DNA of 39,369 nt from Methanobacteriota archaeon (GTDB lineage Archaea > Thermoplasmatota > Poseidoniia > Poseidoniales > Thalassarchaeaceae), in the NCBI GenBank assembly GCA_002722595.1, contig PBMO01000016.1, forward strand, positions 984 through 40,352, in the 5' to 3' direction. Shown here in pieces: positions 17,694 through 33,095 of this stretch. The notes beneath the pieces were generated by a model. The model did not search any database. It was not told the origin of the DNA and saw only the letters and a list, made by a program, of their open reading frames with translations. Each line of letters begins with the position of its first letter. Position 1 is the stretch's first letter. Made by a program: the position numbers and the translations under genes.

Positions 17694-20432
17694 TCAGCAT
17701 CCAAGACCTGATTCAAGGTTGGCGAGATTCTTGCTCATCAACGACATGTAGTCATCGTTGCTGTCAATTGGTGCCATTTCCATAGTGTACAGATATTCGA
17801 TAGTCACACCTGTATCTTGCACGATGCTACCTACCGATGCCGCATCAGTGTATTCTTCAACGAACAATACTGTCACCCCTTCTTCGTTGATATGTTCAAC
17901 GACATTGGCAATATCTTCTGGTGAAGGTTCGCCTTCAGGATCCAAACCGTGAACAGTTACGAATTGGATATCGTAACGGACTGCAATGTAAGAGTAAGCG
18001 TTGTGGTTTGCAACCACAGTCTTTTCCTGGCCAGCAACAGCACAGGTTCCATTTTCTCCAAATGCAGCCTCAAAGGAATCATCCAGCGCATCTAGCTCAG
18101 CACCAAATGATTCGGCATTGGCTCTGAAATCATCTTCAGCACTTGGGAATGCAGCGATTAAACCATCCATGACGATATTCATTTGCACCTTGAATGCAAC
18201 AGGGTCAAGCCAACTGTGCGGGTCATAATTCAACGTCTCCTCATCAGCGTGGTCGTCATGGCCATCCTCATCGTCATGATCACCATCTCCACCAGGTCCG
18301 CTGTTTGCAGCAGTCCACATGTATCCTGCAGCTTCACAGTCGTCCTCAGTAGTGATTGTACTGTCAACAGTGTGCGTACTCATGTCATAGCAGACCATGT
18401 CCTCCTCATCACCATGGTCATCGTGATCATCATGGTCGTCGTGATCATCATGGTCGTCGTGACCACCCTCTCCCATGAGAACATAGAATTCAACATCATG
18501 AGGCAGAGCAAATCCGTATTCGCCTTCAGCTTCAATATGGATTTTCACATGTCCAGCGTGCTCTTCTCCCATATCCATCAGCATGTCAAGTTCTGAAGCG
18601 TCAATGAATCCATTCATGTTCACATCCAATATATCGAACATAGGATTACAATTTGCATCCACACAGTCTTCACATTGATTACTGTCGGAATCCAAGCAAA
18701 CAAAGGCACAAGAAGCCATAACACATTCACAGTAACCGGTAAAATTGTCTAAATCACTAATGTCACATTCCATGTGATGTTCATCATCACCGTGGTCGTC
18801 ATGGTCATCGTCCATGGCTGCAATCATACTGACAAATTCACTCATGGACAACTTCCCATCCCCATCCTCATCAAAGGCCGAGATCAGGATTTCAGTTGTA
18901 AGTGACCCCAACTCATCATCCATATCTTCGATGGACTCAATGAAGTTCTCAAGTTCAGCTAGACTCAATAGAGTATCAGAATCTGCATCAGATTCATTGA
19001 ACATAGTCATCAACATGTCCATCAGATATTCCTCCATTGCTTCTTCGATGGGGTTGTGATCATCGTGGTCATCATGGTGCCCAGGTTCTTCTAGAAGAGA
19101 CATGTTCGCAGTGGATGCAGCCCATGCAAGGTGGTCGTTATCATCATGTGTCATCATGACAGAATCGATTCCAACACCGCTCTCTTCCCATGCTTCACTG
19201 GCCCCATTCCAAATCTGCAGGGACCACCACCATGAGTAATCACTTGGTGCATCAACACCATTAATGCCGTGAACTTGGTTGCCGTATACCTCATGCACAG
19301 ATGAGTTCAGGGAGATGTTGTTCTCCTGCATTGTGATGCTGGTTAAGTCCCATCCTGTTGCATTATCTGGCAACATATCATGGTCCAATTCAAACATTGC
19401 AGTTGTGTTATCTGGATACAGTACGGACACTGAATGAGAGTGTTCATCATGGTCATCATCACCGTGACCGTCGTGATCATCCTCATCCTCATTCATCCAC
19501 ACTGTCCAGAATTCATTCCAGGAAATTTTCCCATCATTGTCTTGATCAGCCTCAGCTAGGGCTTGTTCAGGAGTCATTTCCTCATCATGGTCGTCACCGT
19601 GGTCATCACCATGTCCATGGTGGTCGTGGTGAGCGTGGCCGCCACCCATCTTCAGAACAGCCATGTTGAACTCGTGCAAGTCTTCGGCCTCTTCGAAATC
19701 AAGGATGTATTCACCCTCTTCCATGTGGAAGATTGAGATGACAGTTTCAGATGGACAATCAGCAGGGTCTTCGATGATTTCTTCCGGACTCGCGTGACCG
19801 TGATCTGCGTGATCATGCTCATCGTGACCATCTTCCCCGTGTTCATCGTGGTCTTCTTCCCCATGTTCATCGTGGTCTTCTTCCCCATGTTCATCGTGGT
19901 CTTCTTCCATTTCAGGGAAAGAGAGCGTGTGCGCGACGTACTCTGCATGGATTTCAGATGCATCATCTTCATCCATCGAGAGGGTTGTGGATTCATAGGG
20001 CCCAGCCGTGAGGAGTTCACAGAGTTCCGTAACCAACATCCCCTCGTAATCGAGAGTTACTTCTTCGCCTGGCATGGCGTGCGTCTCGATTGCAGTGGGT
20101 GCCGCTGCGCCCATGGATTCAATAGTTGAATCAACCCATGGTTCTAGACCCAAACCGTGGTAAAAGAATACATCAGCACCTTGGAGACGAACAATGTCTT
20201 GGGCCGATGGTTCGTAGTCATGAACAGGAATATTATCCTGACTCATATATTCCAATGTAACACGATCGCCCGCTACAGCTTTCACAAGCTCACCAACGTG
20301 GTATGTGGACACCATTACGGTACCTACAGAACCTTCGTCTACGACCTCTTCATCACCTTCTAAACACCCAGCGAGGCTGGAGAAAATCATCAGCAGGCTT
20401 ACCAAAATCACTCGATATGAATTACTCTTCAT
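17694..20432 (-). CDS. znuA: ZnuA/TroA-family metal-binding lipoprotein with very large His/Asp-rich, EF-hand-containing insertion
   Basis: LAGC lipobox, VHDYEPSAQD, YHGLGLEPW, then ~600-aa insert, then DPHSWLDP, NHNAYSY, EPSPED. Confidence 0.88.
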   Translation of the reverse strand: MKSNSYRVILVSLLMIFSSLAGCLEGDEEVVDEGSVGTVMVSTYHVGELVKAVAGDRVTLEYMSQDNIPVHDYEPSAQDIVRLQGADVFFYHGLGLEPWVDSTIESMGAAAPTAIETHAMPGEEVTLDYEGMLVTELCELLTAGPYESTTLSMDEDDASEIHAEYVAHTLSFPEMEEDHDEHGEEDHDEHGEEDHDEHGEDGHDEHDHADHGHASPEEIIEDPADCPSETVISIFHMEEGEYILDFEEAEDLHEFNMAVLKMGGGHAHHDHHGHGDDHGDDHDEEMTPEQALAEADQDNDGKISWNEFWTVWMNEDEDDHDGHGDDDHDEHSHSVSVLYPDNTTAMFELDHDMLPDNATGWDLTSITMQENNISLNSSVHEVYGNQVHGINGVDAPSDYSWWWSLQIWNGASEAWEESGVGIDSVMMTHDDNDHLAWAASTANMSLLEEPGHHDDHDDHNPIEEAMEEYLMDMLMTMFNESDADSDTLLSLAELENFIESIEDMDDELGSLTTEILISAFDEDGDGKLSMSEFVSMIAAMDDDHDDHGDDEHHMECDISDLDNFTGYCECVMASCAFVCLDSDSNQCEDCVDANCNPMFDILDVNMNGFIDASELDMLMDMGEEHAGHVKIHIEAEGEYGFALPHDVEFYVLMGEGGHDDHDDHDDHDDHDDHGDEEDMVCYDMSTHTVDSTITTEDDCEAAGYMWTAANSGPGGDGDHDDEDGHDDHADEETLNYDPHSWLDPVAFKVQMNIVMDGLIAAFPSAEDDFRANAESFGAELDALDDSFEAAFGENGTCAVAGQEKTVVANHNAYSYIAVRYDIQFVTVHGLDPEGEPSPEDIANVVEHINEEGVTVLFVEEYTDAASVGSIVQDTGVTIEYLYTMEMAPIDSNDDYMSLMSKNLANLESGLGC
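19837..19908. repeat. 3 x 24-bp coding tandem repeat (EEDHDEHG)
   Basis: CCRTGTTCATCGTGGTCTTCTTCC at 19837, 19861 and 19885. Confidence 0.9.
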
Positions 20433-21828: not shown

Positions 21829-23340
21829 ATGGGCGAAGCATATGGGCAACTGATGTCAAAGATGAAAGAGATAGAAACTGTAGGCCAAATACAGGGACTT
21901 CTAGGTTGGGACCAAGAGGTTATGATGCCTCCAAAAGCCGGACCACTACGTGCAGAACAATTGGCCTGGCTTTCACGCACTAGTCACTCGATGATGGTTG
22001 AAACAGAGATGGGTGAGGTATTGTCAGCAGCGGAAGAAGAAGGAGCGGATGATGAAATCACCGCAGCGAATCTTCGCTTAATCAGAGATGCATATGACAA
22101 GGCCACAAAGAAACCAGCAGATTTCGTAGAACGCTTCGCTCGCCATAAATCAAAATCAATTAGGTCTTGGGCAGAGGCACGAGAAAAGGATGATTTCTCA
22201 ATTTTTAGAGATGACCTTGCAGAGATGATAGACCTTAATCGAGAGCTTGCAGAATATCTTGGATACGATGACAATCCATATGATGCGCTGTTGGATATTT
22301 ATGAATCAGGGCTATGTGTTGCTCAAGTAGATCCTCTATTCCAGGGCCTTCGAGAATCCCTAGTGCCGTTGATTGCCGCAGTGGGAGAATGTGAATCCCC
22401 TGACATGTCATGGGTTGAAGCGAGTAATTGGGGTGAAGATGCTCAAGCCCAACTATCACATGGGATTTCGGCAGCAGTGGGTTTTGATTTCGATGCGGGG
22501 CGACGTGACAAATCCACCCACCCATTTTGCGGCGGAGCAAATCCTGATGATGTTCGGTGGACTACTCGGTATGATGAAAACGAACCCTTCGGTTCCCTTT
22601 ATGGTTCACTTCATGAAACGGGTCATGGTTTGTATGAACAAGGCCGGCCTCGCCAACTAGATTTCCAACCATCAGGTCATGCCAATGGATTGGGTGTGCA
22701 TGAATCTCAAAGTAGACTTTGGGAAAATCAAGTTGGGCGTTCCCTTGCATTCAGTGAGTGGGCAATTCCACATTGGTCCAAACACTTCCCTGAAAATATG
22801 GAAGGAGTTACTGGAGAAATGTTGTGGCGTAGTGTTAACCTCATCGAGCCGAGTTTGATACGTGTTGAGGCCGACGAGGCGACCTACAACATACACATCA
22901 TGATTCGCTACGAGATTGAGAAACAACTCATCAATGGGGAGTTAGAGATTGATGATTTACCTGATGCTTGGGATGACATGTATGAACAATACCTCGGCGT
23001 ACGTTCGCCTGATCGGAAGCAAGGAGTATTGCAAGATATCCATTGGTCAATGGGTGCTTTTGGATACTTCCCCACATACACACTTGGAAATTTGTATAGT
23101 GCCCAATTGCTCGCAGCAGCAAGATCGGATTTAGAGAGCGAACAAACTCTAGAAGAGATGTGGGCCGTTGGGAATTTTGCACCTCTTTTAGATTGGATGC
23201 GAAGCAATGTCCACGAACGCGGTAGTATTTCGACACCAGCTGATTTGATCAAAGAAGCAACGGGCCAACCACCATCACCTCAACCTTTTATCGATTATTT
23301 ACGAAATAAGGTTGAACGCCTTTACAACGTCACTGTTTGA
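21829..23340 (+). CDS. Carboxypeptidase M32 (Taq-type)
   Basis: HPFC, HETGHGLYEQG (HEXXH), HESQSR, IRVEADE, QDIHW, GYFPTYTLG. Confidence 0.96.
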   Translation: MGEAYGQLMSKMKEIETVGQIQGLLGWDQEVMMPPKAGPLRAEQLAWLSRTSHSMMVETEMGEVLSAAEEEGADDEITAANLRLIRDAYDKATKKPADFVERFARHKSKSIRSWAEAREKDDFSIFRDDLAEMIDLNRELAEYLGYDDNPYDALLDIYESGLCVAQVDPLFQGLRESLVPLIAAVGECESPDMSWVEASNWGEDAQAQLSHGISAAVGFDFDAGRRDKSTHPFCGGANPDDVRWTTRYDENEPFGSLYGSLHETGHGLYEQGRPRQLDFQPSGHANGLGVHESQSRLWENQVGRSLAFSEWAIPHWSKHFPENMEGVTGEMLWRSVNLIEPSLIRVEADEATYNIHIMIRYEIEKQLINGELEIDDLPDAWDDMYEQYLGVRSPDRKQGVLQDIHWSMGAFGYFPTYTLGNLYSAQLLAAARSDLESEQTLEEMWAVGNFAPLLDWMRSNVHERGSISTPADLIKEATGQPPSPQPFIDYLRNKVERLYNVTV

Positions 23341-23379
23341 ACCGAAGTCCAATATGTGACCTTGTGACCAGCACTAGGT

Positions 23380-24537
23380 ATGGAGGGCCAACCATTTCGA
23401 GATTTACGCGAAATGGCTTGGTTTGAAAGACAAATAGATGCTAATATCAGTTGCATACACTTAGATGGAGAACGTTTGATTGTGGGCGATTGGGATGGTG
23501 GCATTCATTGTTGGGATCTCAATGGGGAAAACCTTTGGTCCACAAAAACGAGTAATAGAGTCGGTAATCTTAGTCTTTCCAAGAACATGGTTTACGCTGT
23601 TTGTGGACGTGATTTGACTGCTATTGAATTGTCTACAGGGGCAATACAATGGAATAGTGAGTTAGAGGGCAGTAGTGATTTAGTAGCCAGCACACAAGAT
23701 GGAAGCACAATTATTGCAACATCATCAATATTCGATTTAGAAATGAACGATTTTTTAGAGTCTACGATTTGGAGATTTAATCAGGATGGAGATTTGTTAT
23801 TCAAAGAATCCATCGACGAGCGCCCATGGTCTATTGAGATGCGTGGAGATGGAACAGCCTTCCTTGCATTGGGACGGCCTCGATGTGGCATGATTAGAAT
23901 AAATGAAGAAGGCGCACGTCATATGACATTACCAACAAATTCGCCAGCAACGTGTGGACGTGTTGGTCCAAAATATTCGATTATTGGCCATGCAGATGGC
24001 ACACTTACAGGACTAGACACAGGCCTAGTTTTGGATGATGATGATTTCACAAATCAGCCTGGGCCAATCGAAGCCATATCAAGTGCAGAGATTGGTTATA
24101 TGGTCGCATCATCCATTGAAGATAATTCAGGGATATCTGATTCTAATACAGTTCGAGGTATTGCGCGTTCTTATGATGCCAAAGGGAAATTAGTTTGGCA
24201 GATTGAAACCATAGGCGGTTGCATTATTGAACATGTAGAGCATGGGCCCGAGTTTGACAGCAGTGCAACAGCTTGGGTTGTTTCTTGGGACAAGATAGAC
24301 TCTACAATAATCGTCAATTCTGCAACACAAGATAGGCAATATGCTATTTTCAGCGAACCTTCACGTGTTAATGCAATACAGGCATACGAAGATTTCATTG
24401 CAATAGGGTTTGATAATGGTAGATTGATTCTGCTCCAGGGAGAACTTCTTCACAGGAGACTATCCCAAAAAAGCGAGGATCATTCTGACGAAAGGCGCAA
24501 CAAATTGGCTGAAAAATTGCGACGTCTCAGGTCCTAA
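23380..24537 (+). CDS. PQQ/WD40-like beta-propeller protein
   Basis: Repeated blades such as VGDWDGGIHCWDLNGENLW, IELSTGAIQW and YDAKGKLVW. Confidence 0.8.
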   Translation: MEGQPFRDLREMAWFERQIDANISCIHLDGERLIVGDWDGGIHCWDLNGENLWSTKTSNRVGNLSLSKNMVYAVCGRDLTAIELSTGAIQWNSELEGSSDLVASTQDGSTIIATSSIFDLEMNDFLESTIWRFNQDGDLLFKESIDERPWSIEMRGDGTAFLALGRPRCGMIRINEEGARHMTLPTNSPATCGRVGPKYSIIGHADGTLTGLDTGLVLDDDDFTNQPGPIEAISSAEIGYMVASSIEDNSGISDSNTVRGIARSYDAKGKLVWQIETIGGCIIEHVEHGPEFDSSATAWVVSWDKIDSTIIVNSATQDRQYAIFSEPSRVNAIQAYEDFIAIGFDNGRLILLQGELLHRRLSQKSEDHSDERRNKLAEKLRRLRS

Positions 24538-24620
24538 AAAATATCAATTCTGGAATCGCCCTTCCATCGGAAACAGGGGTCGGGTTGCCTGATTTCTGGT
24601 GGAAAGATGCATATTTCTCA

Positions 24621-24633
24621 CAAAGGTTTATGG
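24621..24633 (+). promoter_or_regulatory. Putative archaeal BRE/TATA promoter for the large ncRNA
   Basis: CAAAGGTTTATGG ~25-30 nt before the first helix; resembles GAAGGTTCATGG upstream of pyrE on the minus strand. Confidence 0.5.
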
Positions 24634-25314
24634 CCCTCCGCTTCACACGTGACTTTCGCCGCTCCCGAGGAGTGGTGTCGGAGTGCCCAGTACTACCGGC
24701 AGGCCCCAAGCCCACAAGGGACCCAATTCGGGAACGGCGGTGGGCCACTATTCCGAGTTAAATCGGAGTTGGTGGGGTGTACGGCCAGCAGTAATGTTGG
24801 ATTCGTAGACCTACAGGAGAGAAAGCGTACATTTCGGTGTACAATGGATACTTCTGTGAACAGTGCATTAGAGTTGGGCTCTAGTGCATACAGACACATT
24901 GTGTCTGAAATCACAGGAGATGTCTGCTCGTAAGAGCAGGGATCATTCGGAAGGAACTAGCAACATATACACCTTGCGAAAATCTCAATCAAAGGGAAAC
25001 AATGGAAGCCGAAAGGTGACCTCAGGGACCTAAAGAAAGAGGTAATTGCATAACAGTTGAGTTGTGAAAAGTCGGCTGGAAAAATCCCTCAACGCACAAT
25101 CCTGTGCTGGCATCTGAAGGCTCTGCCTGAAGACCGCCGGGGACGAGAAGGCTGCAGCTAGATCGTTCCAGGAAGGGTTGCAGCAATGCATACCTGACCA
25201 AAGGGGGGAACAGGGTGATAGCAATATCAAATCCTGCTCCTTGGTTGATTGAAATCGTAAGATGGATATTGCCAAGGAGAGACGTTTTCCGCAAGGAATC
25301 GTCTCTCTCAGGGA

Positions 25315-25561
25315 CGCCGGATTAGAGAAATCTGATTCGGGAACTGGTGGAGAGAAAGCAGTTTTCGGACTGTGGACAACACATCGGGAAGTGAGGTAGG
25401 TAACTACCTCAGGCGTCTGAGGATAGCTCGATGCGCTTGCGCATCGGGCTACCCGACCGAGATTTGGAAAACGTCTTCGGACGAAGGAAGGATTTCGGAT
25501 GCGGAGGCTGGCTGGCGGGGAAAGATCTACTCGATTCGAACCTGCCAGTCAGTACTCCCAA
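25315..25561 (+). repeat. Structured repeat domain, copy 1 (~247 nt)
   Basis: CGCCGGATTAGAGAAATCTG...CTCCCAA, near-identical to 25642-25886. Confidence 0.95.
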
Positions 25562-25641
25562 TTCCCACTCCAGGCTGATTTCTTCGCAAGAAGAGAGCAG
25601 TTAGGAGGTGCATGCAGACTGCAAGGAATGCGTGTGCCGGG

Positions 25642-25886
25642 CGCCGGATTAGAGAAATCTGATTCGGGAACTGGTGGAGAGAAAGCAGTTTTCGGACTGT
25701 GGACAACACATCGGGAAGTGAGGTAGGAAACTACCACAGGCGTCTGAGGTAAGGAAGATGTGCAAGCATTTTCTGCACCGGCCGAGATTTGGAAAACGTC
25801 TCCGGACGAAGGAAGGATTTCGGATGTGGAGGCTGGCTGGCGGGGAAAGATCTACTCGATTCGAACCCGCCAGCCAGCACTCCCAA
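25642..25886 (+). repeat. Structured repeat domain, copy 2 (~245 nt)
   Basis: As copy 1 except for a few substitutions and one swapped hairpin. Confidence 0.95.
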
Positions 25887-25995
25887 CTTCCTCTTGGAGG
25901 AATAGGGGCCATCCTAATCATTCACCTTTTCATGTTTGCGAAAGCAATCCACCCACAGAGGTCGTTTTCCTCGTGATTACACATATCGGAATATC

Positions 25996-27594
25996 TCATA
26001 GCCTGGGGCCAATCATATTCTCCGGTCTGACCCACTCATCGAATTGATCATTTGTCAGTAGGTTGAGTTGTAGCGCAGATTCTCTGAGCGTAATCGATTT
26101 CTCATGAGCATTTTTAGCTATTTTTGCAGCATTATCGTACCCAATATGGTTATTTAATGCAGTAACTAGCATGAGAGAATTTTCCAAATGTGATTGTATT
26201 GCATCGTGGTTTGCTTCAAGGCCAGTGATACATTTGTCTGTGAATGCATGGCATGTATCTGCAAGTAACCTTGTGCTGTGTAATAGGTTATGGATCATCA
26301 TCGGTTTGTAGACATTCAATTCGAAATTGCCTTGGCTGCCGCCGATTGAAATTGCAGTATTGTTGCCCATTACTTGACAGCAAACCATTGTCATCGCTTC
26401 AGCTTGGGTGGGGTTTACTTTCCCAGGCATTATACTCGAGCCCGGCTCGTTTGCAGGTAGTGAAAGTTCCCCAAAACCACACCTTGGTCCAGAACCCAGC
26501 CACCGGATGTCATTTGCAATTTTCATCAGGCTAGCTGCAAGTGTGTTTAGTGCACCACTTGCTGATACAATTGCGTCATGTGCAGCAAGTTGTGCAAATT
26601 TGTTTTCAGCACTGATGAACGGTAAACCCGTTTTTTCAGCAATATGGCCTGCTACCGTTTCAGCAAAATCAGGATGCGTATTCAATCCAGTGCCTACAGC
26701 GGTTCCTCCGAGTGCAAGTTCAAACAGGTCCTCGAGTGCAAACTCAATTCTTCGTATATCTGAATCAAGCATTGACACGTAGCCACTGAATTCTTGTCCT
26801 AGTGTCAGTGGAACTGCATCCATGAGATGGGTCCGACCAATCTTGACAACGCTGTCAAACTCTTTTCCCTTATTTGCAAGAGCATCCCTCATTTTACGAA
26901 TGGCGGGAATCAATTGGTGGTGAAATGATTCAGCACTTGAAATGTGCATTGCAGTAGGAAAAGTGTCGTTTGATGATTGTGCTTTATTTACATGGTCATT
27001 TGGGTGCACAGGTTCCTTCGAACCAAGGACACCACCTGCCAATTCAATTGCTCTATTTGCAATCACCTCATTTGCATTCATGTTGGTCTGTGTACCTGAT
27101 CCAGTTTGCCAAACTCTTAGGGGAAAGTGACCATCCAATGAGCCATCAATAACCTCTTCACACGCTGATATAATCAATTCACCAACAACAGGGTCGAGCA
27201 TGCTCAACTCACAATTCGTCATTGCAGCTGCCTGTTTTAAGATCCCAAATGCACGAATAACTCCTCGAGGCATTGTATCGTCACCTATGTCGAAATTAAT
27301 CAGCGAACGCGCAGTTTGGCAGCCATAGTATTTGTCAGCAGGGACTTCTAATTCACCCATGGTGTCAATTTCAATCCTTACATCACCTGGTTTTGATGAG
27401 GCCTTTCGCTCTTCAACTGCTGCTTGAAGTGGTGCAGCGTTTTGTCCATCGAGGGCTTCTTCAATCATCCTCGAAATAGTAGCACTTCTTCCTTCATTTC
27501 TTCCTCTTCCGACTCTCCGATCCAGTCTTTTTGCAATGTTCTCTGGTATGCTTATACTCATGATTCTGCGGTCGCCGGCTCTATGCTTCGCCAT
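25996..27594 (-). CDS. fumC: Class II fumarate hydratase with N-terminal ribbon-helix-helix extension
   Basis: [37 protein letters not shown] and [13 protein letters not shown]; ~70 extra N-terminal residues. Confidence 0.95.
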
Positions 27595-28940: not shown

Positions 28941-31900
28941 ATGTTCGCACGGTGTGATGGTATGACAGAGGAGGTTGGAGTTCGGCTATTCGCCCCACTC
29001 GACGTCCAAAGATTAGAGGATGAGATGGATAACTATCACAATCTTTTGGATCAACAGTGTGAAGAAATTTATCAACTTGCAGCTGAAGCACGTTCGAAGG
29101 GTTATGACCTTAGTGCCGAGGTCGAGATACCTAGAGCCATTGATCTAGCAGACCGTGCTGAAAAGTTGCTGCAAGAATATCTGAAACCATCTGCAGACGA
29201 AGACCCAATTCCAATTCAGGAAGAAATCCGAAAAAAACTGGGAGAGACAGATAGAGAATCCGCTTCGATTGAAATGGGAGTTTTTGTTGCAAAGAAGATG
29301 TATGATGCTACTGCTGACTATCAAAAGAGTGTAGACGCAGGCTTGCGTGTTGGGTTGGCAGTTCTCACTGAAGCCATTCTTGTGGCACCACTAGAAGGAA
29401 TTGGAGATGTTAGGATTCTCAATAATGTAGACGGTACACGATTCGTCTCAATTGATTTCTGTGGTCCGATTCGAGCAGCAGGTGGCACTGCCCAAGCACT
29501 AGCAGTTCTAATCGCAGACATGATTCGTATTGAGTTGGGACTTGCAAAATATGAACCAACCACTCCAGAGGTGGAGCGTGTTAAGGAAGAGTTCGGTTTG
29601 TATAGAGGTGGTTTGCAATACAAACCCCCTCCTGAAGAAATTGAAATGATTGTACGCGCCTGTCCTATTATGGTTAATGGGGAAGAGACTGAGAGTATCG
29701 AATGCGCAGGATACTCAGAGGTTCGTAATATCACAGGAAAAAGAATCCGTGGAGGTGTTCTGTTGGTTATTGGAGAGGGCCTTTGTCTTAAGGCTAATAA
29801 AATCCAGAAACACACTGAGCGATTGGAGGTCCAAGGATGGGATTTCATCTCAAAATTTGCTGCAAAAAGCTCCAAGGAAACTAATGGAAATCTGGTTAAA
29901 CGAAGGACGATAAAAACTGATTCGCGTTTTATGAGGGATATAATCGCAGGGCGGCCAATTTTTGGAGAGCCGAATACTGCTGGTGGTTTTCGATTAAGAT
30001 ATGGCCGTCCTAGAACGTCTGGTCTTGCAGCAGCAGGAGTGAACCCCACATCTATGCATGCGATGGGCGATTTTCTTTCCGTAGGCACGCAGATGAAAAT
30101 TGAGCGACCTGGAAAAGCATGTGCTGTTGTGCCATGCGAAGAAATAGAGGGTCCAACCGTTCTTCTGAAAAGTGGCCGTTATGGCAGAATACAATCAACC
30201 GCCAGTTGGATGAAGGTTTCTGACGAGGTTTTGTCAATATGGGACAACGGCGAAATCATGATTGGTTATGGTGAATTTTCTGAAAATAACAAGCCATTGG
30301 TACCTTCAGGATACGTTTCTGATTGGTTTGCTAGCGATTTGATTGAAGCATTAGATAGTGAAGAAAAAGTCCAGCAGTTCGCAGACATTTTGGGTGCACC
30401 ACGCCGTCGTTTACCAGACGGGATCCCCTCATCAGGGTCACTTGAATCAGGGACCTCTGCTCTTGACAATCTTCAGCGGAAAAGGGCATGGCATCGCCGT
30501 TTGAGGAAAATGACATTGGACTGGGAATCAGTAACAAAAATATCGAAGACTTTCCTTACTGCGATCCCTCCACCTTGGAATCTATGGTGGAATGATTTAC
30601 CTCTAGAATTTGCTGAATATCTCATAAATGCAATAATCTCATCAACAATTGAATCGGCTCAAAACTTGAAAGATGGAGTAGTCACTGAACCATTACCAGA
30701 CAGGCATTGGATGAGGTTGCCAGGTGCTGCAGAGGGCTGGATACCAATCGACCACACTCCAACTGAGTTTACAGGTGATTCAACAAATCACCAGTCAAAA
30801 AAATCTGAAAAATCCATAGCGCCAGAAAAAATGCCTGGTTCAATTGATTCGATAACCCCCTCATCTCTTGGAGATTGGCCAAGGAATATTCAGCATGAAG
30901 AACATGGCGTGGTTAAGTCCTCTCTGATGATTCTTGGCCTTCCCCACATCCATGACGGCAATGACATCCTGATTATTCATGGTTGGCAATCACTTGTGGA
31001 AGGTCTTGGCATTCATCTTGAAGCAAAAGTTTCTGCTAAACCTTCAGTCATTGTCGATGCGAAATCACATATCGAATCGAGAATATCTGATTTGATAGTT
31101 GCAAAGCAGATAGTTGGTGATGAGGAAAAAAGAGTCAAAGATTTGGAACACCAAAGATCAATTCTGAGAATAGAAGCAGAAACAGCAGCAAGACAGAGAG
31201 GGGAAACTATCGAAGCCACCGAAAAAGAAGGAAGGAAAGCCGCAGATAAGATTCCTGACCCCGGTCCAGAGAATGCTTCAGAGTTGGAACGTTCTCTCAA
31301 ACTTCTTGATGACCATGAAGTGGACGGCTCTCTTTGGTTGGTTAGAAAGTGCAGTGATTTACGCTGGGTTGCAGCAGCACCTTGCAGAATTGGGTGCAGA
31401 ATGGGCCGGCCAGAAAAGGCGGCACCTAGAGAAATGAAAGGGAAGCCCCACAGTATTTTCCCAATTGGAAATGATGGTGGACCACAACGCTTGATTACAC
31501 AGGCAGCAAATAAGGGCAGCATTCTTGCAACTATGGGTGTTAGGGAGTGCATATCATGTGGCCGACGAACTCCATACACAATTTGCCATCACCGAAACAT
31601 TCCAGAAGAACCGATTGAATGTGGCGGTAAGACAAAACCTGTAGAGGATATGAAAAACAACAATTCTCGTCGTAAAGGAATTAATCAGTCCGTGAATATA
31701 CCCTCTATTCTTGAAGTGAAGAGAATTAAAATGGGTTTAGACAGAATTCCAAAGAAGTTCAAAGGAGTCAAGGGATTGACATCAAAAGAACGCTACCCTG
31801 AACCTTTGGAAAAAGGAATACTTAGGGCTAAACATCAACTTCCATCTTTCAAAGCTGGAACGATAAGATATGACATGATTGATGTACCGGTGACTCATTT

Positions 31901-33095
31901 CAGACCCAAGGATATTGGGACTCCATTTGAGAGATTAGTTGAGTTGGGATATTCGACTGACATTGACGGTAAACCATTGTCTTCTGAGAATCAGATTTTG
32001 GAGTTGTATCCACAGGATTTCATACCAAGTACCAAAGCCGAAGATTATCTGTTGAGGACATGTGCTTACGTAGATGAATTGCTTATGAGATTCTATGGTA
32101 TGGACCCATTCTACAATGTAAACAAAGGGGAAGATCTAGTAGGCCATCTATTTGTTGGACTTGCCCCTCACACATCAGGAGGAGTATTGACTCGGATTAT
32201 TGGTTGGTCTACTGCGAGTGCGGGCTATGGGCACACATTGTATCATGCTGCAAAGAGACGGAATTGCGATGGTGACGAAGATGCGATTATTCTGCTCTTA
32301 GATTGCTTATTGAATTTCAGCCGTGATTTACTTCCTAGTAATCGAGGTGGCCGCATGGATGCACCGCTAACACTCACTACGCGATTGAATCCCACAGAAT
32401 TGGATAAAGAGGCATTGAATGTAGACACATCTTGGTGGTACAATCGCGATTTTTACGAATCTACTCAGGAGCAACCAACTCCTTACGAGATAAGCGATAA
32501 GATGGATACCGTTGAGAAACGAATTGGTACCATTGGAGCAGTTCGTGGTTATGGATTCACACATGATACAACATCGATTGACAGTGGCCCAGAAAACTCA
32601 TCATACAAAACTCTTGAAACAATGATTGACAAGATGAATGCACAATTATTGTTGGGTCAAAAACTCAGGGGCGTTGATGTTCGAAAAGTCGCGAGTCAAG
32701 TGGTTGAATCACATTTTCTTCCAGACTTACGCGGTAACCTTGTCGCATTTACCCGACAAAAGTTTAGGTGCGTTCGTTGTGGTGAATCGTACCGTAGAAT
32801 GCCTCTTGCTGGACAATGTATCAAGTCTTCCGATAAATCCCAGAATTCCGGAGGCCTTCGCAGAGGAATGGATTTCACTCAAGGTGAGCAACACCTATGT
32901 GGTGGAAATTTAGCATTAACTGTGAGTGAGGGAGCCGTTAGAAAATACATCAAAGTCATTCAGCATGTTATTGATCATTATGACGTAAATTTGTATACTC
33001 GACAACGAGTTCAAGGCCTTGTTGACAGTACCGATTCCTTGTTCAAAAATGACCGTGTCAAGGTATTCACTCTTGATGATTTTATCAGTGGATAA
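28941..33095 (+). CDS. polC: DNA polymerase D large subunit DP2
   Basis: GPIRAAGGTAQAL, GGFRLRYGR, IGCRMGRPEKA, HAAKRRNCDGDED catalytic motif, C-terminal Zn finger RCVRC; start may be ATG 28962. Confidence 0.97.
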   Translation: MFARCDGMTEEVGVRLFAPLDVQRLEDEMDNYHNLLDQQCEEIYQLAAEARSKGYDLSAEVEIPRAIDLADRAEKLLQEYLKPSADEDPIPIQEEIRKKLGETDRESASIEMGVFVAKKMYDATADYQKSVDAGLRVGLAVLTEAILVAPLEGIGDVRILNNVDGTRFVSIDFCGPIRAAGGTAQALAVLIADMIRIELGLAKYEPTTPEVERVKEEFGLYRGGLQYKPPPEEIEMIVRACPIMVNGEETESIECAGYSEVRNITGKRIRGGVLLVIGEGLCLKANKIQKHTERLEVQGWDFISKFAAKSSKETNGNLVKRRTIKTDSRFMRDIIAGRPIFGEPNTAGGFRLRYGRPRTSGLAAAGVNPTSMHAMGDFLSVGTQMKIERPGKACAVVPCEEIEGPTVLLKSGRYGRIQSTASWMKVSDEVLSIWDNGEIMIGYGEFSENNKPLVPSGYVSDWFASDLIEALDSEEKVQQFADILGAPRRRLPDGIPSSGSLESGTSALDNLQRKRAWHRRLRKMTLDWESVTKISKTFLTAIPPPWNLWWNDLPLEFAEYLINAIISSTIESAQNLKDGVVTEPLPDRHWMRLPGAAEGWIPIDHTPTEFTGDSTNHQSKKSEKSIAPEKMPGSIDSITPSSLGDWPRNIQHEEHGVVKSSLMILGLPHIHDGNDILIIHGWQSLVEGLGIHLEAKVSAKPSVIVDAKSHIESRISDLIVAKQIVGDEEKRVKDLEHQRSILRIEAETAARQRGETIEATEKEGRKAADKIPDPGPENASELERSLKLLDDHEVDGSLWLVRKCSDLRWVAAAPCRIGCRMGRPEKAAPREMKGKPHSIFPIGNDGGPQRLITQAANKGSILATMGVRECISCGRRTPYTICHHRNIPEEPIECGGKTKPVEDMKNNNSRRKGINQSVNIPSILEVKRIKMGLDRIPKKFKGVKGLTSKERYPEPLEKGILRAKHQLPSFKAGTIRYDMIDVPVTHFRPKDIGTPFERLVELGYSTDIDGKPLSSENQILELYPQDFIPSTKAEDYLLRTCAYVDELLMRFYGMDPFYNVNKGEDLVGHLFVGLAPHTSGGVLTRIIGWSTASAGYGHTLYHAAKRRNCDGDEDAIILLLDCLLNFSRDLLPSNRGGRMDAPLTLTTRLNPTELDKEALNVDTSWWYNRDFYESTQEQPTPYEISDKMDTVEKRIGTIGAVRGYGFTHDTTSIDSGPENSSYKTLETMIDKMNAQLLLGQKLRGVDVRKVASQVVESHFLPDLRGNLVAFTRQKFRCVRCGESYRRMPLAGQCIKSSDKSQNSGGLRRGMDFTQGEQHLCGGNLALTVSEGAVRKYIKVIQHVIDHYDVNLYTRQRVQGLVDSTDSLFKNDRVKVFTLDDFISG

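Follow-up and report, generated by a model that had tools for sequence, protein, structure and literature searches.

Few large structured RNAs of unassigned role are known, and those found described (OLE, ROOL, GOLLD, raiA) are bacterial. OLE, ROOL and GOLLD, the 'ornate' RNAs of bacteria, are stand-alone and large, with many covarying helices, conserved loops and no evident coding or cis-acting role. Passages of PMC12286853 describe them as homo-oligomeric. An RNA of similar kind, likewise large and stand-alone, with many covarying helices, conserved loops and no evident coding or cis-acting role, is encoded on the + strand of a 39,369-nucleotide (nt) stretch of Thalassarchaeaceae DNA (assembly GCA_002722595.1, contig PBMO01000016.1), here called the window. 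Like OLE, ROOL and GOLLD, it was first seen by comparative sequence analysis. It differs from them in its archaeal, marine planktonic host, its chromosomal and syntenic gene, its tandem module of ~327 nt and the lack of sequence or structure homology to them in Rfam 15 scans. An earlier note on the window had pointed to a tandem RNA domain at 25315-25886. With a probability of about 0.85, this repeat is the tandem duplication of a ~327-nt 3' module of an undescribed large structured non-coding RNA of Marine Group IIb (Thalassarchaeaceae and one genus of a sister family). The earlier note saw only part of the element: the repeat is the 3' portion of a ~1.27-kb RNA gene, and its copies are non-equivalent.

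Tandem-aptamer riboswitches (e.g. the glycine riboswitch) carry two homologous ~100-nt domains head to tail, in the 5' leaders of the genes that they control. The present RNA is alike in its two homologous structured domains, head to tail in one transcript. Its module, by contrast, is ~327 nt long and occupies the 3' end of an RNA that stands alone, with a convergent gene downstream, and no riboswitch model matches.

Coordinates are window positions throughout, and G000 is the window's own genome. Direct-repeat search gives two pairs of blocks, 25312-25436 / 25639-25763 (125 nt, 93% identity) and 25453-25569 / 25778-25894 (117 nt, 92%), spaced 325-327 nt from start to start. A diverged hairpin separates the blocks (25421-25454 in copy 1, 25748-25779 in copy 2). 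Two tandem copies, as the earlier note had claimed, are borne out at 92-93% identity. The unit of ~246 nt that it proposed is too short: the 69-nt 'linker' has its homologue in the sequence before copy 1 and belongs to the repeat, and the true period is therefore ~327 nt (25243-25569 and 25570-25894 in alignments A1 and A2). Alignment A1 holds 16 of the 20 genome loci of the same genus at full length; L010, L015, L016 and L018, cut by contig ends, are excluded. Alignment A2 holds 27 module copies from 16 genomes and omits copy 2 of G008 (a run of N) and truncated loci. Alignment A3 holds the 5' 720 nt of 16 sequences. Alignment A5 holds 15 of 16 rows, L012 being excluded for its Ns. The 5' part and the modules were folded separately, not as one full alignment.

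Within G000 the two well-aligned sub-domains differ between the copies at nine positions, of which five are one-sided and keep the pair, one breaks a pair and three are unpaired. The individual changes listed earlier are all reproduced. In the long stem three G-U pairs become G-C (25507/25553, 25511/25549 and 25517/25543 versus 25832/25878, 25836/25874 and 25842/25868). In the flanking helix an A-U pair becomes G-U (25314/25416 versus 25641/25743). The loop GUAA becomes GAAA (25401 versus 25728), the tetraloop UUCG becomes UCCG on the consensus structure, and one stem pair is broken (25409 T versus 25736 A). The 'built-in covariation' read into these changes does not stand. Paired-site changes between the two copies are all one-sided (wobble transitions), with 0 compensatory changes in the two sub-domains, so that the within-genome evidence for covariation is weak by itself. 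The contrast between the copies agrees with an RNA fold and does not prove it.

Covariation is found among the homologues. The module consensus (A2, RNAalifold) has 87 pairs, 48 of them with at least one compensatory double change, versus 23.9 +/- 2.7 in shuffled alignments (0 of 500 reach the observed value) and 10-18 when pairing partners are slid by 1-3 columns. Cells are paired at 96.1%, versus 90.1% after shuffling and 31-41% after sliding. The 5' domain (A3, RNAalifold), under the same controls, has 53 compensatory pairs out of 151, versus 24.9 +/- 2.9 (0 of 500) and 12-17, with 97.1% of cells paired. Compensatory substitutions above controls, the generic mark of a structured non-coding RNA, are present in both module and 5' domain. 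Substitutions random with respect to pairing, which the earlier note had named as a refuting outcome, are contradicted by the 48 of 87 compensatory module pairs. Selection on the RNA fold, as proposed there, is upheld by the 27 module copies and the 5' domain. The inference of a selected fold and a copy-variable module was right in substance, but on other evidence than that cited, and in this sense it is partly supported.

Each module comprises two small linker hairpins, a three-way junction, a variable hairpin, a further hairpin (B2) and a long stem-loop. The long stem-loop has a 13-bp stem, a purine-rich internal loop, a 4-bp helix and a 5-nt apical loop. The 5' domain contains the most conserved part of the RNA and long-range helices; one of these, 24735-24741 / 25133-25139, shows a compensatory change and is recovered also by a separate pair scan. 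Three RNAalifold helices upstream of the promoter were dropped, there being one isolated double change in one sequence only. The + strand folds at -443.6 kcal/mol, versus -344.9 for the - strand; the 5' 463 nt alone have a fold z-score of -6.0 (+ strand) versus -2.9 (- strand). G+C is 0.519 in the RNA gene versus 0.448 in the whole window. Between genera, hairpins H1 and H2 of the 5' core covary. The terminal long stem-loop is flanked in other genera by GCGGAG and CUCCCA, with a stem that covaries between genera, and its R-R-A / Y-G-A-A internal loop and pyrimidine-rich apical loop persist. The promoter, core hairpins H1 and H2 and the terminal long stem-loop are common to the whole family.

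The duplication is not produced by assembly. Of the 16 full-length genome loci from the genus, 12 have the two copies in this same order, and so do many contigs from metagenomes. The junction of copy 1, linker and copy 2 is bridged by an independent DNA-run contig (X2, 25513-25671, 0 differences) and by an RNA-run contig (X18, 25485-25671). Since the junction is bridged and two-copy loci occur in a dozen species, an artefact of collapsed strains is ruled out; the mis-assembled strain variants that the earlier note had considered are contradicted by the same loci and contigs. Assemblies do break at the repeat, many contigs and run unitigs ending within it and G008 having a run of N. In L051 and L057, the contigs with three apparent copies, the middle one is pieced together from sequence of the two beside it, an arrangement to be expected of a loop in the assembly graph. 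Even so, strain variants of a single-copy region set in tandem can practically be dismissed as a source of the two copies, given the spanned junction in DNA and RNA runs, the shared order in the genome loci and the copy-specific middle segments kept in 11 species (identity 0.75 between first copies, 0.78 between second copies and 0.59 between first and second). The run of N in G008 (L014 / L022) stands in place of most of module copy 2. Short-read assemblies break systematically in the repeat, and copy numbers derived from metagenome-assembled genomes (MAGs) need long-read confirmation.

The repeat lies within a 1458-nt stretch between a beta-propeller open reading frame (ORF; 23380-24537, + strand) and a convergent class II fumarase gene (25996-27594, - strand). 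Transcription would start near 24658 and stop near the T-run at 25927-25930. The motif CGAAAGGTTTAT, in this genome CAAAGGTTTAT, is conserved in every genus examined and is followed by ~26 variable bases and then by a conserved start, GCCGCUCC, at 24658. We take the motif to be an archaeal B recognition element (BRE) and TATA box, at the right distance. Two elements at 24562-24605 look like candidate binding sites for a transcription regulator. They probably lie outside the RNA; RNA-run contigs give no cover there and the helices predicted there have no compensatory support. The T-run is a likely terminator, going by what is generally assumed of archaeal terminators, and contig L070 stops just before it. 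Among 41 RNA-carrying metagenome contigs, seven start at the equivalents of 24665/24666, and two further contigs, on the opposite strand, end at 24663 and 24669. Six of 20 public runs containing the stretch are RNA libraries. Contigs from three RNA runs (three studies) are confined to 24669-25881, and the compared DNA run also covers the flanks, 24400-24699 and 25838-26100. RNA-run contigs give no cover over 24400-24627 or past 25881, a weak hint that comes from contigs only. At the level of contigs, the conserved BRE/TATA motif, the coinciding contig starts and the confinement of RNA-run contigs to the body of the RNA would agree with a discrete transcript made from its own promoter. The RNA is present in RNA libraries and has one fixed locus per genome.

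Table. Features of the RNA gene and its surroundings (window positions).
Feature	Position	Strand	Basis or detail
Candidate regulator sites: palindrome TTCCAnnGGAA 24562-24572, ATTTC..GGAAA 24592-24605	24562..24605	+	Kept across genera, 20-70 nt upstream of BRE/TATA
Spurious 108-aa ORF, partly inside RNA gene	24607..24933	+	Frame switching in relatives, no Pfam match
Putative BRE + TATA promoter, CAAAGGTTTAT here, CGAAAGGTTTAT in most other genera	24621..24631	+	Near-invariant, 16/16 same-genus and 12 distant loci
Whole RNA gene (~1.27 kb)	24658..25930	+	Start inferred ~24658, end near T-run 25927-25930
5' core, most conserved part: hairpin H1 (24658-24676), hairpin H2, further helices	24658..24811	+	R1 match, 151.6 bits
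5' domain with long-range helices	24658..25242	+	RNAalifold, 16 sequences, pair counts above controls
Module copy 1	25243..25569	+	Linker hairpins 25254-25263, 25282-25302; three-way junction 25312-25418
Module copy 1, continued	Variable hairpin 25421-25454; B2 25461-25494; long stem-loop 25500-25560	+	A2 consensus
Module copy 2 (terminal)	25570..25894	+	Linker hairpins 25583-25592, 25612-25633; three-way junction 25639-25745
Module copy 2, continued	Variable hairpin 25748-25779; B2 25786-25819; long stem-loop 25825-25885	+	A2 consensus
3' tail with conserved T-run 25927-25930	25895..25930	+	Tail and T-run conserved in A1

The window's own genome has a single match to the stretch. By BLAST the region is matched in 21 of 23 other genomes of the genus, at 71-77% DNA identity, and in none of 17 genomes of other genera. 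R1, a covariance model built on the 5' core with 154 positions and 52 pairs, finds the RNA in at least 48 of 74 sampled Thalassarchaeaceae (f1) genomes, covering 10 of 13 genera, and in 1 of 74 genomes of sister family f3; none was found in the two genomes of family f2. In a phylum-wide draw, seven of the nine genomes from the family have an R1 match and none of the 126 from outside the order does. With filters off, it finds the RNA at the syntenic site of G030, the second genome of the one positive genus of f3, and gives no match at the syntenic sites of G026, G028, G034 and G025. In G028 the gap at this site looks by eye like coding sequence of a membrane protein. A pattern of the 5' core matches 29 records among species-representative genomes, and 19 of these carry the RNA. 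Eighteen of the 19 are labelled Candidatus Thalassarchaeaceae / Poseidoniales (Marine Group IIb) or unclassified euryarchaeal MAGs. The remaining one, L037, is labelled an Acidimicrobiaceae MAG and has a full archaeal RNA locus with two modules, 70.5% identical over 24563-25946; it is probably mis-binned. The other ten pattern records, bacterial, are chance matches, R1 finding nothing at E up to 0.01 in the nine tested. In viral contigs the loop pattern has 0 matches and the core pattern one chance match, not matched by R1.

The flanking beta-propeller and fumarase genes are kept in same-genus relatives. All 12 distant loci adjoin the fumarase gene (10/12), the beta-propeller gene (9/12) or both. 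The intergenic length at these loci is 722-1217 nt, and the size of the RNA therefore varies roughly two-fold: ~1.27 kb here and roughly 0.6-1.2 kb in other genera. R1 gives one match each in 49 of 50 matching genomes. A mobile element or repeat family was rejected, with one locus per genome, conserved neighbours and no viral-contig homologue. No beta-propeller homologue was found at the G026 and G034 loci.

Several points weigh against the preferred explanation. The module helix predicted to close each unit (helix 3) has one-sided changes only and is weakly supported. A scan for pseudoknot or tertiary pairs gave no trustworthy new helix: of 35 full-length matches, 19 were left after identical and N-containing rows were dropped and 16 after three rows >99% identical were dropped, and at this uninformative depth the scan returned mostly cross-copy echoes and short chance runs. 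The contig starts at 24665/24666 lie 8-9 nt downstream of the start placed at 24658, where hairpin H1 has its loop; they could reflect a processed 5' end, which would remove a covarying helix. Transcript ends, strand and abundance are inferred from assembled contigs, not from raw reads. R1 E-values for most of the distant genera are modest (1e-3 to 1e-7, with rough calibration). The distribution counts from R1 are lower bounds, strict filters having overlooked the true locus of G030. Finally, G028 has a beta-propeller homologue beside fumarase where no RNA was found.

This last locus bears also on the view that the element is a structured untranslated region or cis element of its neighbours, as 3' untranslated region of the beta-propeller gene or as antisense or 3' overlap of the convergent fumarase gene. 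The element always sits between those two genes, as that view would have it. It has, however, its own conserved BRE/TATA and a sharp downstream onset of conservation and of contig starts; RNA-run contigs enter neither gene, whereas the DNA run does; and in G028 the beta-propeller homologue adjoins fumarase without the RNA being found. A role as cis element is accordingly given hardly any credence, and because of G028 the adjacency of RNA and beta-propeller gene probably reflects synteny alone.

Variation in module number, also proposed in the earlier note, is confirmed: some genomes and contigs carry one module, others two. In A1, 12 of 16 loci have two units; G006, G016, G004 and G019 have one. 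A single module occurs also in the sister genus g8 (one full module) and in three metagenome contigs. Two of the 41 metagenome contigs (L051:575-1544 and L057:326-1264) have the three apparent modules mentioned above, and whether these represent a real unequal crossover allele or an assembly loop is ambiguous. In one RNA-run contig (X13, 25338-25561) a copy-1-type variable hairpin is followed by the copy-2 base at 25549 and then directly by the 3' tail, a hint that a close relative of the strain carries either a recombinant with one module or a copy 2 altered by conversion.

The sub-domains of the module have evolved differently. Three-way junctions are 0.887 identical between the copies within genomes, versus ~0.76 between genomes whichever copies are compared. 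This sub-domain appears to be homogenised within genomes by gene conversion. The middle segment is 0.584 identical within genomes, versus 0.75 (first copies) and 0.78 (second copies) between genomes. From this pattern the duplication predates most of the species, and selection has kept both versions. The two copies thus appear not to be simply redundant, their middle hairpins being copy-specific and conserved. Gene conversion would keep the three-way junctions alike while the middle hairpins stay copy-specific. In G000 conversion has, in addition, given the second hairpin of copy 1 the form found in copy 2. Identity in the long stem-loop is 0.987 among terminal (second) copies versus 0.870 among internal (first) copies; the internal-copy stem-loops retain the helix via compensatory changes.

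Single units differ in their make-up. That of G006 has a copy-1-like linker and is copy-2-like from the middle segment on. In the unit of G016 everything through the middle segment resembles copy 1, and only the stem-loop resembles copy 2. In a 5'-domain tree rooted on g8, G006 and G016 are nested among two-copy species (support 0.99), one-copy G019 is basal, and one-copy G004 pairs with two-copy G007. On the simplest reading of tree and units, the duplication would have arisen once, within the genus, and then been lost independently two or more times, when the copies recombined unequally by homologous recombination at different crossover points. Homogenisation within a genome and copy loss by unequal recombination are familiar from the concerted evolution of rRNA operons. 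The present case differs in that homogenisation is limited to one sub-domain within a single transcript, the neighbouring sub-domain remaining copy-specific across species. Such a mosaic of gene conversion and copy-specific conservation within one transcript makes this case of RNA domain evolution both unusual and tractable, and one-module and two-module species form a natural experiment on the contribution of a whole RNA domain. Smaller internal repeats are seen in the RNA of other genera: a 52-nt tandem hairpin in two copies of 90% identity (L113:1017-1118) and four copies of a ~28-nt motif (L107:1217-1475). The RNA seems prone to growing by internal duplication.

No described family matches, and it is in this sense that the RNA is novel; its general kind, the large ornate non-coding RNA, has bacterial precedents. 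Rfam 15 (4227 models, including OLE, ROOL, GOLLD, group I and II introns, RNase P, SRP, tmRNA and riboswitches) gave 0 matches at gathering score anywhere in the window. With the limit relaxed to an E of 10 (23000-27500, 24640-25250 and 25560-25960), all matches score 11.8-22.1 bits, versus cut-offs of 33-168; these are mostly generic hairpin matches to unrelated families, at chance level. ARAGORN found no tRNA or tmRNA in the window. The UUCGAA word in the stem-loop is T-loop-like by eye only. Full-text searching of the literature found no description of the RNA, supplements lying outside the scope of the search. The unnamed abundant RNAs of marine metatranscriptomes reportedly described by Shi et al. 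in 2009 and Weinberg et al. in 2009 could include fragments of it.

Archaeal RNase P RNA (RF00373) was considered and rejected: the model matches elsewhere in the genome (G000:C4:26971-27267, 222 bits) and not at the RNA locus, and canonical RNase P RNA was found in 20 of 25 relatives searched. The two RNAs are alike as structured archaeal RNAs with a conserved core and variable peripheral helices. They are unlike in that the present RNA does not match RF00373 and the canonical gene lies elsewhere.

An invariant core and long-range helices are features of RNase P and of self-splicing introns. The present 5' core has long invariant, partly unpaired runs, and long-range helices close a compact domain, as would be expected of a new large ribozyme with the near-invariant core as its active site. 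However, neither a substrate nor a splice junction nor an associated ORF is evident, the ribozyme models of Rfam do not match, and the gene, single-copy and syntenic, is not a mobile intron. A ribozyme is considered very unlikely.

Sequence constraint is stronger on the terminal stem-loop, and this suggests that a protein or another nucleic acid recognises it sequence-specifically. With its invariant internal loop, rich in purines, and its apical loop, rich in pyrimidines, the stem-loop would serve as the recognition element. As a guess, held with rather less than even confidence, the RNA may be an architectural or ribonucleoprotein scaffold RNA and not a regulator of neighbouring genes.

A self-assembling RNA-only particle (dimer, ring or cage), with module loops as intermolecular bridges and module number setting the valency, overlaps with the preferred explanation and is in itself improbable. 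It would suit a large RNA rich in GNRA- and UUCG-capped hairpins, with near-invariant loops in the terminal stem-loop that contain the self-complementary words AGAUCU and UUCGAA. OLE, ROOL and GOLLD homo-oligomerise via kissing loops and A-minor contacts, as portions of PMC12286853 relate. The palindromic words, on the other hand, are explained also by a small internal helix, GAUC/GAUU (helix 18), in which the changes in G019 keep the pairs, and the Rfam 15 scans show no homology to OLE, ROOL or GOLLD. Yet more doubtful is the further proposal of a first large 'ornate' RNA from archaea, an abundant, lineage-defining, RNA-only or RNA-dominated particle with the terminal stem-loops as intermolecular contacts; if that were true, gain and loss of modules would re-tune the valency or geometry of the particle.

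Read as the large structured RNA of Marine Group IIb proposed above, the element is of interest for its hosts. Marine Group II has no cultured members, and these rank with the most abundant archaea in surface waters of the ocean. A family-wide RNA of ~0.6-1.3 kb that is present in RNA libraries, with an invariant core and a regulated-looking promoter of its own, likely matters for their biology. It is also a potential lineage marker for metatranscriptomes.

The 108-aa ORF at 24607-24933, the sole long one between the beta-propeller and fumarase genes, was rejected as a gene: its tblastn matches in relatives are 35-62% identical and switch frame, despite ~73% DNA identity, and no Pfam match was found for it. 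The beta-propeller protein (23380-24537) is PQQ/WD40-like, with no evident signal peptide and with a basic C-terminal tail. It diverges fast, with 26-47% identity where fumarase retains 65-90%. The window is archaeal, with the DNA polymerase D large subunit at 28941-33095. At 17694-20432 it encodes a 912-aa protein in which several calcium-binding EF-hand domains are joined to a ZnuA-type periplasmic metal-binding domain, an unusual fusion.

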